From assembly GCA_963555825.3 (NCBI GenBank), contig CAUVXB020000002.1, positions 64,001-128,000 on the forward strand: DNA of 64,000 nt, given 5' to 3'. Source of the DNA: Alphaproteobacteria bacterium (lineage in GTDB: Bacteria > Pseudomonadota > Alphaproteobacteria > JAAXGF01). The notes beneath the pieces are model-generated. The model did not search any database. It saw only the letters and a list, made by a program, of their open reading frames with translations, and was not told where the DNA came from. Made by a program: the position numbers and the translations under genes. Position 1 is the stretch's first letter, and every line of letters begins with the position of its first letter. Of the stretch, positions 1 through 7,072 are shown one piece after another.

Positions 1-37
1 CGTTTCACGCCATCGCTCCCCTAAGGAATCGCACCCC

Positions 38-216
38 ATGAACGCCACTGAAATTGCCGCTGCGTTAAGCACACGGGCCGAAGACGTATGCCGCCGCTAC
101 CTTCCCCGCGGACGCAGGCAGGGCAGATACTGGACCATCGGCGACACAAGCGGCGCCAAGGGGCGCTCGCTCTTCGTGCGCCTGGCGCCCCCCGGCATAC
201 CCGGAAAATGGACCGA
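38..216 (+). pseudogene. 5' part of a toprim/primase-like gene, interrupted by the RIT element
   Basis: MNATEIAAALSTRAEDVCRRYLPRGRRQGRYW...GKWT closely parallels the N-terminus of ORF 396..1490. Similarity stops at 211-216 and resumes at 4816 (TDA..TNEHGDLLDL). Confidence 0.8.
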
Positions 217-242
217 ATATGTTGCGGTGTTGGTTATGTTGC
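211..242 (+). repeat. RIT left inverted repeat (two TATGTTGC boxes)
   Basis: gaccgaatatgttgcggtgttggttatgttgc is the reverse complement of 4764-4795 with 3 mismatches. A third, inverted box lies at 289-296. Confidence 0.85.
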
Positions 243-395
243 GTATTCGCGATTGGGTGCATTCCCACAGACGATCGACGTCTTCTAAGCAACATAACGT
301 CAGCGCATTCGTCCTGAATGAACTGGCCGAGTCCCGAGCATCACCGCTCACCGACGCCATGACCGACCGGCTCAAGGCGGACGGGCGGGGGATGT

Positions 396-1490
396 ATGAT
401 GCCCCGTGACGCTTCCGAGCTGGCGCATCGTCTCGCCCGTGATGCCGAGGCGGTTTGCCGTCGCTACCTGTCCAACGGGCGGCGCCAGGGGCGCTACTGG
501 ATGGTGGGCGACGTTCGCAATACGCCCGGCCGGTCGATGTTCGTCCGGCTCAGCGGACCGGATTCCGGTCCCGGTGCTGCCGGGCATTGGACCGATGCCG
601 CAACGACCGAGTATGGCGACCTCCTCGACGTGGTCCGTGAGAGCTGCGGATTCATTGACTTTCGCGACGTCGCCGATGAGGCACGACGCTTCCTGTGTCT
701 GCCGCGCGCTGAACCGCGGCGTACCCCAAGACCTGCTCGCACACCTGTCCCGGCCGGGTCACGAGAGGCCGCGCAGCGGCTGATCGCCATGTCGCAGCCG
801 ATCCGCCGGACGCTCGTCGAGACTTATCTGCACAATCGCGGCATCAAGGCTGTTCATGATGCGGGCGCACTGCGGTTTCATCCACGCTGCTACTATCGCC
901 GGGACGGCAGTCCGCCGACTGAGACCCGACCGGCGATGATCGCTGCCGTTACGGATCTCTCCGGCGCCATCACCGGCGCGCATCGCACTTGGCTCGCGCC
1001 GGACGGCTTCGGCAAGGCGCCCGTCGACACGCCGCGACGAGCCATGGGTAATCTCCTCGGCCATGCCGTCCGCTTTGGCGCGGCCGGCGACGTCCTCGCA
1101 GTCGGCGAAGGCATCGAGACGATGCTGACGCTACGCTTTGCGCTGCCTGCCATGCCGATGGCTGCCGCGCTCTCGGCCAACCACCTTGCCGCCGTTCTGC
1201 TCCCTCTGACGCTGCGTCGACTCTACATCGCCCGCGACGCCGATCCCGCGGGTGACATGGCGCTCGCGGCATTGACCGAACGCGCCGAAGCAGCGGGCAT
1301 TGAGGCGCTAGCCCTCTCTCCGCGGATAAGCGACTTTAACGATGACCTGCGTGCATTCGACCTCGACGCGCTTCGGGCGGCACTGCGCATCCAGCTCGCG
1401 CCGCAGGATATCGTTCACTTCATGCGCTGGGGAACCGCCAGGACGCCGCGATGTAACTCCAGCCTCACAAGGATTTCAGAAAGGCCATGA
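396..1490 (+). CDS. Toprim-domain DNA primase-like protein (plasmid/ICE type)
   Basis: 364-aa ORF with YLHNRGI, LRFHP, GAHRTWL, toprim VGEGIET, IARDAD and DFNDDL motifs. Confidence 0.85.
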   Translation: MMPRDASELAHRLARDAEAVCRRYLSNGRRQGRYWMVGDVRNTPGRSMFVRLSGPDSGPGAAGHWTDAATTEYGDLLDVVRESCGFIDFRDVADEARRFLCLPRAEPRRTPRPARTPVPAGSREAAQRLIAMSQPIRRTLVETYLHNRGIKAVHDAGALRFHPRCYYRRDGSPPTETRPAMIAAVTDLSGAITGAHRTWLAPDGFGKAPVDTPRRAMGNLLGHAVRFGAAGDVLAVGEGIETMLTLRFALPAMPMAAALSANHLAAVLLPLTLRRLYIARDADPAGDMALAALTERAEAAGIEALALSPRISDFNDDLRAFDLDALRAALRIQLAPQDIVHFMRWGTARTPRCNSSLTRISERP

Positions 1491-2460
1491 GATCCTTGTC
1501 CTCCTTCCATGAGCGACCGGGTTTTGGCTGACCGACTTCGCAAAGAGCTACAGCGTTGGCTTTCAGCGTGAGGTCTATTTCGGCATAGATGTTGGTGGTG
1601 CTGATCGAGACATGGCCGAGCCAGGCGCGGATGGTATTGATGTCCACGCCGGCGAGAACCAGGTGGCAGGCCGTCGTATGCCGGATCACATGAGGGGTTA
1701 TCGTTCTGCCCGCCAGGGCCGGCACCCGGACCGCGTAACGTTCGACAAGGCGATAAACCCCGAAGCGGGTAAAGGGTGTTCCGAGCCTGCTGACGAACAC
1801 GGCGTCCTCGGCTGCCCGGCCCATGACCTCGTCTGCCAGAACTCGTTCGGTTTCCGGCCACAGCGGGCACTGGCGCGTCTTGCCGCCTTTCCCATGCAGC
1901 GTGGCAAGATCGTGACCACCATTCCCGCACCCGATCTGCAGATCGCGCACCTTCAGTTGCGTGACCTCGGAGACACGCGCCCCGGTGTTGTAGAGAAAGA
2001 GCAGAAGTGCGTATTCGCTGCGCCCCCGCTTGGTCTTGCGGTCGGGCACGGCGAGCATGGCCTCCATGTCCGCCCTGGTCAGCCATCCGACCGGTGGCGA
2101 CACGGACTTCTTCGATGCGATGGCCCGGATATGGCCGCACCATTCGACATGAGCCGGGTCCCGGCTGCCGACGAAGCGGGCAAACGCCCGGATCGCTGCA
2201 AGCCGCTGATTGCGAGTTCGAACGGAACAGCCGCGCTCTTCCTCAAGATGCGCGAGGAACTGTAGCACCAGTTGAGATGTGAGATCTCTCACGGCCAGCC
2301 GGTCCACGGGCTTGCGCAGCTTGCGGCTGACGAACGGCAGGAGCAGGCTGAAGGTGTCGCGATAGCTCGCGCGAGTGTTCCGGGCCAGATTGCGTTCGGT
2401 GACAATGTATTCGACCAGGAAGCGTCGAAGCCAGGGGCCAAGGGTTACGAGTTCACCCAT
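1465..2460 (-). CDS. Tyrosine recombinase, third RIT gene
   Basis: TGARVSE, HGKGGKTR, HVIRH, LGH and TTNIY catalytic motifs. Start overlaps the stop of the upstream recombinase. Confidence 0.92.
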   Translation of the reverse strand: MGELVTLGPWLRRFLVEYIVTERNLARNTRASYRDTFSLLLPFVSRKLRKPVDRLAVRDLTSQLVLQFLAHLEEERGCSVRTRNQRLAAIRAFARFVGSRDPAHVEWCGHIRAIASKKSVSPPVGWLTRADMEAMLAVPDRKTKRGRSEYALLLFLYNTGARVSEVTQLKVRDLQIGCGNGGHDLATLHGKGGKTRQCPLWPETERVLADEVMGRAAEDAVFVSRLGTPFTRFGVYRLVERYAVRVPALAGRTITPHVIRHTTACHLVLAGVDINTIRAWLGHVSISTTNIYAEIDLTLKANAVALCEVGQPKPGRSWKEDKDLMAFLKSL

Positions 2461-3403
2461 CCTGGCCTCCTCCCGCATAGTGCGCAAAACGCAGCGATGC
2501 CTGCTGCAGAAGCTCCGGCGTCATCGACAGATAGATCTTCGTACCTTCCAGATCGGAGTGGCCGAGATAGGTGGCAAGCACCGGCAGCAGCCGCTGCACA
2601 TCCGCCCCCTCGCGATACCAGGCGGTCAGCCTGTGAACCGCGAAGGAGTGCCTGAGATCATGCATACGAGGAACCCGGCAGCCGCTTCTTCTGCCGTGGA
2701 CCCCGGCGATGCGCCGCAGCGCATCGAATGCGGCCTGAACGGTGCTGCTGGCGAGCTGCGTGCCGTCACGGTTCGCCAGAAGGAAGGCAGTCTCGTCCTG
2801 CGCAGGCCCGCCGCGCCGCTGCAGAAGCATGTAGTCCGCCAGCACCATTGCGAGTTGCGGTCCGACAGGGACCAACCGGCTCTTGTAGAACTTCGTGACG
2901 CGTATGGTCAGGATGGCTTCCGCCAGATCGACATCCGCCAGCGTGAGCCGCGTGGCTTCGCTGAAGCGCAACCCTGCTCCGTACAATAGAAGAAGCAGGG
3001 TGCGGAATGTGACCGCGTCGAGTTGCACGGCGCCGCGCCGACTGGTCTCAATGATCGCGGGGTCAAGAAGCCGCCGCAGCTCGTCGCGCGAGTAGATGTA
3101 GGGCGGCGCACGCACGGGCGACCTCGGCTCGTTGTCCGGTAGTGGCGAGCGGGTCGCATGGCCACGGCTGATCGCATGACGCCAGAAGCCGGCAAGGCTG
3201 TAATACTTGTTCTCGCGGTGCCGGGTCAGCGGTCCCGCGCCCGCCAGAAAGGCCAAAACCTGCGCTGTGCTGACCGCGTCACATTCGGCGTCCCCATCGG
3301 CATGTCGGAGGAGTTGACGCAGCAGGTTCGCCCCGCTCGTGAACTTGGCGCCATGGGCCTTTCGCCAAAGGATGTATCGCTCGATCGCCTCGCGCAGCGT
3401 CAT
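2453..3403 (-). CDS. Tyrosine recombinase, second RIT gene
   Basis: Start MTLREAIERY at 3403 (ATGA overlap); GLRFSEA, TKFYKSR, HDLRHSFA, LGH and TKIY motifs. Confidence 0.92.
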   Translation of the reverse strand: MTLREAIERYILWRKAHGAKFTSGANLLRQLLRHADGDAECDAVSTAQVLAFLAGAGPLTRHRENKYYSLAGFWRHAISRGHATRSPLPDNEPRSPVRAPPYIYSRDELRRLLDPAIIETSRRGAVQLDAVTFRTLLLLLYGAGLRFSEATRLTLADVDLAEAILTIRVTKFYKSRLVPVGPQLAMVLADYMLLQRRGGPAQDETAFLLANRDGTQLASSTVQAAFDALRRIAGVHGRRSGCRVPRMHDLRHSFAVHRLTAWYREGADVQRLLPVLATYLGHSDLEGTKIYLSMTPELLQQASLRFAHYAGGGQDG

Positions 3404-4650
3404 GCCAGGCCCTCCAAGTCGAGGGCCGCAACCTCGCGGAGGGCAGCGAGATTGACCTTGGCGTAAATCGCGGTGGAGGACGGGTCGCGGTGCCCGAGAA
3501 AGTCCCCGATCACCTTCATGGACATGCCCTGATCCAGAAGATGCTGGGCCGCGGCATGGCGCAAGGCATGTGTGCCGCGGCGACCTGTAACGATACCGAT
3601 GCCTGCGAGACGATCGCGGACGATCTTGCACAGGGTCTTTCTGCCAACCGGTCGGATGGGCGCGTGCGATGTGTAGAAGAGGCTGCGCCCGAGGCCGGTC
3701 GGGCGGCCTTCCCGTATGTAGCGCAGAATGGCATTGCCGACGTCCGGCGAGAGAGGCCAGACATGGGTCCGGCCCGTCTTCGGGCAGCGAACCCGAATGA
3801 TCTCGTTCTCCCAGTCCAGATCGTCCAGTCGCAGGCCGACGACTTCCCCGGCCCGCAGCCCGTAAGCAACAAAGAGCATGAGGATCGCGCAGTCGCGCTT
3901 GTCGACCGGGCGATCCCCCTGAACTGAAGCCAGCAGACGCACAACATCTTCGCGCCTGACGCCCTTCGGCACGGTCTCGTCTGCCATGAACCGGGGCCCA
4001 ATGATCCCTCTGGCAAGACCCACCCGACACAACCCGTGCGCCTCTGCGAAGAGGAAGAACGCCCTCAGTCGCTGCGCGTAATCGTGTATCGTCCTCCGGC
4101 TCCAGGCTCCCCGCCTGTGCTCTGCCGAAACTGCATCGTCGATGTCGCCCATCTGGACGGCGTCCAGCGATGTGCCTCTCTCTGCGAGCCAAAAGAAGAA
4201 AAGGTCGGCGGCGCGGCAATAGTCTTGTATCGTCGCATCGGACAGGCCGCGCTCCCGGCGCATCCATTCCTCAAAGATCGTGACCTCGGCGTGATGCGGA
4301 TGGCGCTCGCGTTCAGGTTCGTCGAGCCAGCCCAGAAAACGCAGCCACTGGACTCCGCTGCTGGCAAACTGTTTGCGCGCCTTGGTGGAAGCCGCCCGGT
4401 CGCATCTGCGCCCTCTCGGTCGTGCCCAGATCGCCGCTGCAGCCTCGATCCGGGGAATGCTGACCCTGTCGCCCTCTTGTAAATCCAGAATCCGGACAAG
4501 GTTGAGCTGGGCGTTGGCCCATTTGCGCAGGGTGCTTCGACAAGAGCCGACTTCCCTGAGATGGTGAAGGTATCGCTTCCGCTGCTCGGCCAGCGGCGCG
4601 GCCTCGTACTTGGTGATGAATGCGGGAAGGATGAAGAGTTCGTCGAACAT
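3400..4650 (-). CDS. Tyrosine recombinase, first RIT gene
   Basis: 416 aa; YGLRAGE, HALRH, LGH and TAIYAK motifs; GGAGG RBS upstream. Confidence 0.92.
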   Translation of the reverse strand: MFDELFILPAFITKYEAAPLAEQRKRYLHHLREVGSCRSTLRKWANAQLNLVRILDLQEGDRVSIPRIEAAAAIWARPRGRRCDRAASTKARKQFASSGVQWLRFLGWLDEPERERHPHHAEVTIFEEWMRRERGLSDATIQDYCRAADLFFFWLAERGTSLDAVQMGDIDDAVSAEHRRGAWSRRTIHDYAQRLRAFFLFAEAHGLCRVGLARGIIGPRFMADETVPKGVRREDVVRLLASVQGDRPVDKRDCAILMLFVAYGLRAGEVVGLRLDDLDWENEIIRVRCPKTGRTHVWPLSPDVGNAILRYIREGRPTGLGRSLFYTSHAPIRPVGRKTLCKIVRDRLAGIGIVTGRRGTHALRHAAAQHLLDQGMSMKVIGDFLGHRDPSSTAIYAKVNLAALREVAALDLEGLA

Positions 4651-4763
4651 GATCGTACCTCCGTAAAGATGGAGTTCCGATCATGCCAGCGGCGCCGCGT
4701 CGTACCATTATGTTGCGGTGATTGTGACGCCTGCCAGACCGGATGGGTCCGGCACGAGCCACA

Positions 4764-4821
4764 GCAACATAATGAGCACCGCAACATATTCGGTCTTATG
4801 TGCAATTCAACATAAGACCGA
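4764..4821. repeat. RIT right inverted repeat plus recombinase core-like palindrome
   Basis: IR at 4764-4795. Perfect 12-bp arms tcggtcttatgt (4790-4801) and acataagaccga (4810-4821) flank an 8-bp spacer. Confidence 0.8.
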
Positions 4822-5679
4822 CGCGCGACCAACGAGCATGGCGATCTGCTCGATCTCATCCGTCTGCACACCGGCGGAGCATCGCTGCGGCACGCCATGG
4901 AGGAGGCCCTCGCATTCCTCTCATTGCCGCGATCCGCTCCCGCAAATGCCGGAGATCACGCCGGCGGCTATGACCGTGAAGAAGCAGCACGCCGCCTCTG
5001 GCGCCGCTGCCGGCCCATCGATGGCACCCATGCGGAAGCCTACCTGCACGCCCGCGCCATCGGCCATTGCCGCTTCCCGGCCCTGCGGTTTCATCCCGAT
5101 CTCATCCATCGCGACGATGATGGCATCCACCGCCTCCCGGCACTGGTCGCCGCCGTCACCGGCGATGACGGCGCCGTCGAGGGTGTTCAGCGTACCTGGC
5201 TCGACCCCAAGCGTCCCGCAAAAGCCAACCTCGCCCGCCCGCGCAAGGCGCTCGGGCGCGTCCACGGCCGGGCCGTGCGCTTCGGCGGGTCCGCCTCGGG
5301 CGCGACCCTGCTTGCCGGCGAAGGCATCGAAACCGTTCTTTCATTAGTAACCGCCGTCCCCGGCATTCATGCCGCGGCGGCTCTATCGGCGGGCAGCCTC
5401 GGCGCCTTCGAACCGCCCCAAGACCTCGCCCTGTTGGTCATCGCCCGCGATAAAGACGTGGAGGGCGGGCACGCCGCGAACCGTCTTCAGCGCCGTTGCG
5501 TGGAACGTGGCATTCCCTCAATCGTGATCGTTCCCGAATGCTCTGATTTTAATGACGACCTCGTTGCCTTCGGAGAAGAAACCCTTGCGGCCCGGATCGC
5601 GCCCCTTATTGCAAGCTCCAAGTCCGCGGCAACGGTGGAAGAGAGGCGTGGGAGTGGGAGAATAATTAACCCGTCATGA
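4816..5679 (+). pseudogene. 3' part of the interrupted toprim/primase-like gene
   Basis: Continues the 38..216 N-terminus (1-nt slip near 4825) into ORF 4897..5679, which has LRFHP, QRTWL, AGEGIET and DFNDDL. Confidence 0.8.
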
Positions 5680-5966
5680 TGTCTCATTGTCCCACACGTT
5701 CTCACTGCGCCAACCCCTGCGGGGTCCTCCACTCCGCTTCGCTCCGTTACGGCGATAGCGCGCAATGCCACGCCGCTGCGCGGCTAGCGCCGGTGGAATA
5801 CGCGACCGTGGCTCAGTCGCTGCGCTCCCTGCGCCCGCACCACTCGCGCATCCCCCCGGCGCAGGCATTCCGGCCATCGTGGCTCCGCTGCGAGCGCGTG
5901 ACCCAAAGAGTCATCACGACGGGGCAGCCCGCCTCGGAGGATAGCAACATTGCAGTGGAGAGAATC

Positions 5967-6900
5967 ATGCAAGACTTCATCAGCACCGAAACGTCGTCAC
6001 AGACCGCAATGGCTTGCGAACAGGCCGCCCTGTTCGGCGCGACCCCTGGTCCCGAAGAGTTCGACAATCGCGAGATCTGGAACGAGGACGAGGCGCTTGC
6101 CGGGATCGAGGAAGCGATCCACATTCTGGCCGGCGCCGTCGCACCGGACGGCACGCAGCTCGCCGACGAACGCGAGAGCCTGCTCTGGGGCTTCGTCAAT
6201 ACGCTGCACGCCCAGGTCCAGCGCCTCGACCGCGGCATCGACAAGATCGCGCCCGAGATGAAAGACCTCGGCCAGGAACAGGACGGCTCCGAGATCAAGT
6301 CGCGCGAACTGGAACTCCTCACCGACCGGGTCCAGAACCTCGGCGACCGCCGCGACGCCTTCGAGGCCATGCGCGACCTCGCCGCCGAGGGATACCGCGC
6401 CGAGACCGGCGACACCTGGCGCCCGCGCAACGGATCGCACAGCAGCCAGACCGGCAAACTCACCTCAGCCGCCATCGACGCCCGCGACTACCTGCGCGCC
6501 CGTGAACACCGCGAGACCTCCGCGCATCTGCCCGAGGGCACCCTGGTCGCCTTCACCGGCGGCAAGGACTTCGGCGACGTCACCGCCATCTGGCGCTCGC
6601 TGGACAGCATCAAGATCAAGTACGACGATATGGTCCTGCTGCACGGCGGCGGACCCGGCGCGGAGAAGATCGCGGCAAGCTGGGCGGAGAAGAACGGCGT
6701 GCACCAGGTCGTCTGCAAGCCGAACTGGGACCGGGACGGCAAGGCCGCGCCCTTCCGGCGCAACGACGTCCTGCTGAACTTCCTGCCGAAGGGCCTCCTC
6801 GCCTTCCCCCGGGAACAATATGATCTCGGGCATCACGAATAACTTAATGATCGACAAGGCACGCAAGATCGGAATCCCCGTCCTTCTCGCCGCCGCGTAA
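5967..6900 (+). CDS. DUF2493 / YspA-SLOG-like protein (apparent frameshift at the C-run near 6806-6810)
   Basis: VAFTGG, LLHGG, GAEKIA, WAEKNGV, APFRRND and AFP motifs. The expected tail G..SGITNNL..DKARKIGIPV continues in another frame to TAA at 6900. GGAG RBS precedes ATG 5967. Confidence 0.75.
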
Positions 6901-7072
6901 CGGTACCCTTCAGGGCCGGCCCCCGCCATCATCCGGCCCACGGCGGAGGACCGGCCCCTTTTTTATGCCGTGGTGCATAAAGTCACGGCCCTACTCGGCA
7001 TTATTCTCGCCGCCGCGTAGCGACACCCTTCCGGTCCCCCACTCGGCGCGGGACCGGTCCCTTTTTTTGCCG
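6884..7072 (+). repeat. Imperfect direct duplication of gene end plus intrinsic terminator
   Basis: ttctcgccgccgcgta..acccttc at 6884 and at 7004, each followed by a GC hairpin, ggaccggYccc, a T-run and tgccg. Confidence 0.7.

Follow-up and report, generated by a model that had tools for sequence, protein, structure and literature searches.

A site-specific recombinase-in-trio element that may bring a spare of the toprim gene it enters

The recombinase-in-trio (RIT) elements, reportedly described by Van Houdt et al. in 2009 and Ricker et al. in 2013, are the closest described relatives of an insertion in a stretch of 64,000 nucleotides (nt) from an Alphaproteobacteria bacterium (JAAXGF01; assembly GCA_963555825.3, contig CAUVXB020000002.1, positions 64,001 to 128,000, forward strand). 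This stretch is our window; all window coordinates below are positions within it, and C2 denotes a contig of the window's genome (G000). Within window positions 38 to 5679, a DUF7146/Toprim_3 gene lies in two pieces with a 4.6-kilobase (kb) RIT element between them (217 to 4815), and the element holds a complete toprim gene in addition to its three recombinase genes. We read it as a site-specific RIT transposon that targets the K-W-T-D/GACCGA codons of a DnaG-like toprim gene and brings with it a complete spare gene, a reading to which we assign a probability of roughly 0.7.

Described RITs, in the passages available from PMC10214605 and PMC3414803, measure about 3.5 kb and consist of three genes with repeats of 28 to 34 bases, and the available part of Van Houdt et al. 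2012 (PMC3414803) reports a palindrome overlapping one RIT end. Our element shares with them three adjacent, overlapping tyrosine-recombinase genes, a terminal inverted repeat of about 30 bases, and the end palindrome. Its recombinases of 416, 316, and 340 amino acids fit the 315 to 410 amino acids given for the RIT archetype in the accessible text of PMC10214605, and known RITs have likewise inserted inside mobile-element genes, namely a transposase gene and the radC gene of an ICE (integrative and conjugative element), according to the sections of PMC3414803 at hand. Unlike known RITs, the present family holds a leader and a whole toprim gene within one or both ends, which are about 1.1 kb long, and it has both a defined block of target codons and a stop/start overlap with the target gene that it breaks. 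Judged from its sequence, the element is a RIT variant whose gene content, repeats, and palindrome fit but whose size and gene number depart; we file it as a variant because it has 4.6 kb and a fourth gene, versus about 3.5 kb and the trio only.

Site-specific insertion by an element with several tyrosine recombinases is also a feature of Tn554, strand-biased circularising elements (SEs), and GInts, as set out in the portion of PMC10214605 available. The 6-base footprint that Tn554 and SEs are described there as carrying over resembles the unequal left and right cores (attL and attR) of our RIT family, which differ in 4 of 14 loci and from which we infer carry-over here. Unlike those elements, no counterpart of TnpC, Tfp, or Srap was seen in the RIT family, and the terminal inverted repeats and palindromic extension of the RITs are a further difference.

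Target codons and junctions of the element

The original prediction, made from the letters of the window, held that the host gene is split at GACCGA within W-T-D codons. This was borne out by the presence of the core at both junctions and by an unsplit paralogue in the same genome (C2:708306-709507; locus L002), in which window positions 1 to 216 (96% identity) and 4816 to 5800 (94%) abut with a 6-base overlap. That overlap of both flanks is GACCGA, the paralogue reads W-T-D-A-A-T-G-E-H-G across the junction, and it maps the insertion to single-base precision. The element is present as a single copy in its genome, and the identical target in the paralogue is unoccupied. The search for uninterrupted alleles that the prediction had called for also succeeded elsewhere. 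Genome G018, from another family, has three unsplit places at 91 to 95% identity and a fourth in pieces, and one of its unsplit alleles reads W-T-D-A-A-T-N-E. Finally, a contig from public sequencing run X19 joins position 216 to 4824 with three letters between, restoring the unsplit sequence; we did not count it as an excision product, since it may come from another strain whose allele was never occupied.

We used RitA as a query against one genome per species, which gave 58 loci that were mapped by tblastn. With 63 loci in hand, we counted the 56 trios in which RitA is at least 60% identical and set 7 loci aside. At all 26 left junctions examined (25 loci), the element sits at the same toprim codons, with the flank GGCAA(A/G)T(G/T) followed by the 6-base core and the repeat. 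The host frame is open through repeat and leader at 26/26 junctions, for 37 to 39 codons in the relatives and 66 in the window. In 25 of these 26 cases the frame ends in TGATG, in which ATG is the start of the cargo gene (M-P-R-D...) and is preceded 8 to 10 bases upstream by a GGAGG-like motif; 23 of the 25 cargo genes linked in this way are open for 343 to 359 amino acids, and 2 are broken. In the window, too, the frame proved open to 409 as predicted, its TGA (407 to 409) overlapping the cargo start at 396 or 399, and the translational coupling that this overlap had suggested now has the backing of a family-wide trait. Such openness is not general to repeat and leader: on the RitA side of the window copy, the leader in the corresponding frame meets a TAA that belongs to the inverted motif. 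The relatives' leaders carry the same inverted motif, which is read as Q-H-N in the read-through peptides. The features of the window locus are as follows.

38 to 216, plus strand: 5' piece of the host DUF7146/Toprim gene, codons 1 to 59 and two bases, breaking off after K-W-T, two bases into the D codon
38 to 409, plus strand: the broken host gene's read-through frame, which stays open over core, repeat, and leader and reaches its TGA at 407 to 409 within the first cargo codons
211 to 216, plus strand: left core GACCGA (left junction, attL)
217 to 243, plus strand: left terminal inverted repeat, containing the TATGTTGCG motif twice in direct orientation
289 to 297, plus strand: third motif copy, inverted (GCAACATAA), within the leader
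396 to 1490, plus strand: complete cargo toprim gene, 364 amino acids, with Pfam matches to DUF7146 (E value 2.7e-39) and Toprim_3 (1e-19)
2487 to 1465, minus strand: ritC, tyrosine recombinase, 340 amino acids, Phage_integrase (E value 2.7e-27)
3403 to 2453, minus strand: ritB, tyrosine recombinase, 316 amino acids, Phage_integrase (5.6e-24), its start overlapping the ritA stop (ATGA)
4650 to 3400, minus strand: ritA, tyrosine recombinase, 416 amino acids, Phage_integrase (3.4e-27) and a SAM-like domain (Pfam)
4651 to 4762, minus strand: RitA-side leader with an inverted motif copy at 4706 to 4720, joining ritA directly with no toprim gene between
4763 to 4789, minus strand: right terminal inverted repeat, reverse-complementary to 217 to 243 and likewise holding two motifs
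4790 to 4795, plus strand: internal core as the reverse complement (TCGGTC); the motif arms that flank it left and right make it a complete recombinase-type site
4796 to 4815, plus strand: near-palindromic 20-base extension, which belongs to the element
4816 to 4821, plus strand: right core GACCGA (right junction, attR)
4822 to 5679, plus strand: 3' piece of the host toprim gene, with DUF7146 and Toprim_3 (Pfam), 94% identical to the paralogue

The 5' piece of the host gene is 96% identical to the unsplit paralogue and gives a tblastn match to cargo residues 3 to 67. All three recombinases have full-length Pfam catalytic-domain matches, and the catalytic HxxR, the LGH histidine, and the tyrosine are readable in their C-terminal parts. 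The 3' end of ritC overlaps that of the cargo gene by 26 bases, and the window RitC is 85 to 92% identical to the RitC of its relatives.

The prediction also spoke of inverted repeats, and these are present as inverted arms (211 to 242 and 4764 to 4795), which span 32 nt at 91% complementarity. The two ends are not symmetric, as the right one has the 20-base near-palindrome between the reverse-complement core and the right core. Each arm holds two direct TATGTTGCG motifs, and a third, inverted copy lies further inward at both ends; the two-motif repeat is also found at the relatives' 26 left junctions. Unlike the internal reverse core, the outer cores have a motif arm on one side only. The extension is present at 17/17 right junctions, always on the side of the 3' part of the host gene, and at 0/26 left junctions, and distant RITs carry their own versions of it. 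Core sequences vary among copies: the left core is GACCGA at 18 of 26 junctions and GGTCGA, GGCCGA, GACGGA, TACGGA, or CACCGA at others, and the right core is unlike the internal core at 5/17 junctions and unlike the left core in 4 of the 14 loci having both.

This layout suggests that the element, once circularised, would hold two complete recombinase sites back to back. The polarity of the extension could then be explained because the core is asymmetric and either site could pair with the target, which would place the extension on the 3' side both ways. The trio runs opposite to the host gene at 10 right junctions and along it at 7. Because the 15 informative right junctions include every pairing of trio orientation with extension orientation (4, 4, 4, and 3), at least one kind of in-place inversion, repeated in the history of the family, appears to have taken place. 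We also compared by eye the arms of the unoccupied site (attB) with the element's motif arms; they showed little likeness, and the idea of a resemblance was dropped.

In the window assembly, the two host halves would be out of frame if rejoined, as one C is missing just after 4823. The same C is present in the paralogue, in the G018 allele, and in contigs of public runs X17 (1 contig, depth 3.82/3.82), X18 (1 contig, 2/2), and X1 (346.7/1019.6) that span the right junction. This makes the frameshift either strain-specific or an assembly error and not a property of the insertion.

Toprim modules across related elements

One possibility raised at the outset was that other copies would lack the toprim gene or lie in unrelated targets. 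Among the 56 related trios, at least one toprim copy is present in 41, from many genera, and the targets are those described above, so that the check on other copies came out in favor of a shared trait. On the RitA side, a toprim gene is present in 34 trios, absent in 8, and not assessable in 14, where contigs end; on the RitC side, it is present in 30 (in 3 of them separated from ritC by other genes), absent in 3, and not assessable in 23. The usual form has two toprim copies, one per end and inverted, and a RitC-side copy without a RitA-side copy was demonstrated only in the window and in L055. Among the seven loci set aside, L063, with a decayed RitA, has both copies, and the others are distant RITs with no toprim gene beside the trio. 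Many contigs of 4.8 to 5.7 kb are broken at the same toprim residue at both ends, as expected from long inverted repeats. The end modules of 16 two-copy elements are 99.9 to 100% identical over about 1.13 kb in 3 and 74 to 87% identical in 13.

A megablast search against plasmids returned 10 records, 5 of which have the toprim gene and the three recombinase genes under the match (2 of these being the same Mesorhizobium plasmid). Among the resulting plasmid loci L008 to L011 (Aminobacter, Sagittula, Rhodobacter, and Mesorhizobium), three match at 63 to 82% DNA identity over toprim gene and trio, and the fourth covers 48% of the window query. All four plasmids have the order toprim(+), trio(-), second full toprim(-), and then a toprim fragment. 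On the left lie a host 5' fragment, core, and repeat, and on the right lie repeat, reverse core, 20-base extension, core, and a host 3' fragment. The host toprim genes that related elements occupy are diverged and belong to many genera, which argues for past mobility. Among the contigs of the public runs, no circular form turned up, nor any excision product distinct from an allele that the element had never entered.

Passenger genes were found in several copies. On the Aminobacter plasmid (L008:4354-7020), a potassium-channel protein gene and an SLC13 permease gene lie between ritC and the RitC-side toprim gene, and L035 and L045 have extra passenger genes in the same place; the element can therefore take further cargo. 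We considered whether relatives lacking a toprim gene carry a spare of another target instead and rejected this, as L052 and L053 hold unrelated GNAT, methyltransferase, sulfatase, and AraC-type regulator genes beside ritA.

Other loci record further rearrangements. The Mesorhizobium plasmid (L011:634-2725) has an IS91-family transposase gene and a tyrosine-recombinase gene between the internal core and the 20-base extension. In L027 (8611-14562), the element lies between two different host 5' fragments, inverted and with no 3' fragment, the layout expected if two insertions, each in a different toprim gene, had recombined. In L012 (3298-14085) and L043 (8501-10830), the toprim-type trio adjoins clusters of several trios, whole or partial, that belong to a second, distant RIT type with a palindromic extension of its own. 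On a Mesorhizobium amorphae plasmid (L070:5723-7050), an annotated "hypothetical protein" that ends at the toprim start is the host read-through frame; this locus looks like a decayed element, with only one recombinase gene annotated nearby.

The cargo toprim gene and the one-copy variant

A full toprim gene in the same orientation as the host gene and diverged from it had been predicted inside the repeats at 396..1490, and its DUF7146 and Toprim_3 matches confirm this, although ATG at 399 is more likely than 396 as the start codon, judging by comparison with relatives. In an alignment of 29 sequences, E238, E241, D281, and D283 are invariant, and the EGxE and DxD segments are conserved. A structural model of the cargo protein has a mean predicted local distance difference test score (pLDDT) of 72, with values of 85 to 96 over residues ~120 to 345 and below 50 for residues 1 to 74. 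Of its 34 fold matches at an E value of ≤0.001, the best are DnaG-type primases, with Aquifex first (2.3e-8), followed by the E. coli, S. aureus, P. aeruginosa, and T7 cores. A search of solved structures by sequence with the same protein gave 0 matches. The cargo protein and DnaG-type primases are thus alike in their Toprim domain and predicted catalytic-core fold, but no zinc-binding domain is among the Pfam and NCBIfam matches of the cargo protein, and "primase" is here a label at the level of the modeled fold.

Ratios of nonsynonymous to synonymous substitution (dN/dS) among 27 cargo genes have a median of 0.22 and a range of 0.14 to 0.39 (pairwise; 325 of 351 pairs gave a value), and the window cargo gene lies at 0.16 to 0.29 against 25 others. 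We placed the toprim genes in a quick IQ-TREE phylogeny of 63 rows, which excluded matches that were shorter than 200 amino acids, contained stops, or did not span residues 70 to 305. In this tree, 38 element-borne copies form one group with no host copy inside (87 in the Shimodaira-Hasegawa-like approximate likelihood ratio test, or SH-aLRT), and a second clade of 7 RitA-side copies (SH-aLRT 100) is also without host copies. Copies from the RitA and RitC sides are intermixed, which fits exchange between the ends, and the window host gene and its paralogue occupy a very long separate branch.

The element's own target site differs in its cargo genes. It reads G-(H/R)-W-T-D in 42/42 cargo genes in which it was located, with five more genes outside the search pattern, and the host targets all read G-K-(W/F)-x-D. 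The difference between H/R and K is consistent with the element's own genes being poor targets, but plain descent could equally have produced it.

The window copy is a one-copy variant. Its RitA falls in a starred clade of 17 rows (support 97), together with two-copy elements and copies without a RitA-side gene, and its RitA-proximal leader resembles that of a toprim-less Bradyrhizobium group. We read the one-copy state as secondary loss or exchange of the RitA-side end. The same toprim-less RitA-side layout in L055 reflects an independent loss of the same copy. The toprim family of the window genome has three members, namely the cargo gene, the split host gene, and the paralogue, and the last has a 5-base tandem duplication near codon 40 that puts its 40 N-terminal codons out of frame. 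The transposon's cargo is the only unbroken gene of the DUF7146/Toprim family in this genome.

Beyond the split gene, the host locus has a single-stranded DNA-binding protein gene upstream and a YAcAr/DUF2493-type gene followed by a TrwC relaxase gene downstream. Because these genes adjoin, we take the locus to be part of a conjugative element. Past the YAcAr-type gene, the gap at 6884 to 7067 contains two pairs of direct repeats (families D1 and D4; 34 nt, 85%, and 33 nt, 79%), spaced ~103 to 120 bases apart, with a T-run at the end of each. Elsewhere in the genome, C2:601263-602117, 2329392-2330246, and 3600602-3601456 match RitA with equal scores (34% identity over residues 120 to 409, in a frame of 541 amino acids), and their sequences probably represent a different multi-copy tyrosine-recombinase element.

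Readings of the spare gene and what they would mean

In the reading that we prefer, the RIT element with its ritA, ritB, and ritC recombinases would home to the GACCGA core, in the K-W-T-D codons, in the toprim gene of conjugative elements. Its circular form would present two complete sites back to back, either of which could pair with the target, allowing entry in either orientation. The cargo gene would then be transcribed from the promoter of the host gene and translated by coupling to the host start. The conjugative element would keep a working toprim protein, and the insertion would cost it little. With the module at both ends in most relatives, either orientation would work; the window copy has it on the RitC side only. 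From the conserved arrangement we infer that the cargo functionally replaces the target.

Several points weigh against this reading. The window copy lacks the canonical TGATG overlap: it is the sole exception in the family, with a leader ~80 bases longer and a stop 8 bases inside the cargo gene, giving an overlap of 11 to 14 bases. Some close relatives have no toprim gene on one side (8/42 on the RitA side and 3/33 on the RitC side), so the cargo is not indispensable to the element. The support of 87 for the main cargo group is below the starred level. The cargo protein is only 43 to 45% identical to the window host protein and the paralogue, which leaves their functional equivalence uncertain here. 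The frameshift in the paralogue suggests that the host element may be able to do without the gene, in which case complementation would be unnecessary. Expression of the cargo from the host promoter and restored transfer are themselves predictions from the DNA.

Transcript data and a promoter scan speak neither for nor against that expression. Contigs assembled from three metatranscriptome runs cover parts of the cargo gene and of all three recombinase genes, with DNA carry-over possible. None of these contigs bridged the left junction, and strand and level are not visible in contigs. A scan for sigma-70-like promoters near the host start and the leader found 0 with 0.0 expected, and such a scan is uninformative for an organism of this kind.

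In a rival reading, it is the transposon that the toprim protein would benefit. It might, for instance, prime DNA synthesis when the element is in a circular, single-stranded, or hairpin intermediate state, with the sparing of the host as a side effect. The element would then land in toprim genes because its ends evolved from, or recognize, that family. Purifying selection on the cargo gene, its inheritance with the element, and its DnaG-like fold would all suit such a role, as would the protected or hairpin RIT intermediate proposed in the accessible parts of PMC5737581 and PMC10214605. However, classical RITs move with three genes in ~3.5 kb and without a toprim gene (PMC3414803, as far as its available text goes), and close relatives of the present element lack the gene on one or both sides. 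The conserved stop/start overlap also ties cargo expression to the host gene and not to the operon of the recombinases, which lies either on the opposite strand or downstream. We therefore consider self-service unlikely.

Somewhat more doubtful still is that the element is chiefly an invertible switch, in which the left core would recombine with the internal inverted core, flip the body of the element, and so choose which toprim allele follows the host promoter or, in the window form, whether the toprim gene or ritA does. The four orientation combinations counted above (4, 4, 4, and 3 of 15) need inversion besides two-way insertion, and the two end modules are only 74 to 87% identical in 13/16 two-copy elements, both of which speak for a switch. 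In the 3/16 elements with 99.9 to 100% identical ends, however, a flip would change nothing, and in the window it would put an in-frame stop before ritA. That the trio acts as a resident primase-allele switch on conjugative elements, swapping which diverged allele is coupled to the host start, is likewise improbable. If true, it would perhaps help the conjugative element to establish itself in different recipients or to escape host defences, and the one-copy form in the window would toggle between primase ON and a recombinase-proximal state.

Chance capture of a neighbouring toprim gene, favored only by an initial impression that a RIT normally has three genes and no more, is refuted by the module in 41/56 related trios of many genera, which keep both cargo and target; an assembly artefact fares no better, since 0.86 to 0.88 of sampled words of the whole arrangement are present in 16 public runs (7 studies; one run may be the source sample) and the genome is in 2 contigs, and we give this pair of explanations practically no credence.

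Some integrating mobile elements repair the gene they enter. Phages and ICEs in tRNA genes and dusA-specific integrases restore the gene entered, for example by supplying a new 5' end. Like these tRNA- and dusA-type integrators, the RIT element would neutralize its own insertional damage by means of a replacement sequence. Those integrators supply only the displaced fragment, fused in frame, whereas the RIT family brings a diverged gene in its entirety, start codon included, which is coupled to the truncated host frame and in most members duplicated, so that either orientation would work. We found no paper linking RITs with primase or toprim genes in a literature search whose coverage lacked Ricker et al. 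2013.

Taken together, a transposon that cancels its mutagenic cost with a whole spare gene wired to the start of the broken gene would represent a strategy absent from the literature searched. It would also be a case of one mobile element parasitizing another, with the conjugative element as both target and vehicle. The target and the 6-base core are defined, the recombinase sites come in complete and half forms, and natural insertions in the two directions number in the dozens, which together make the proposed mechanism directly testable.

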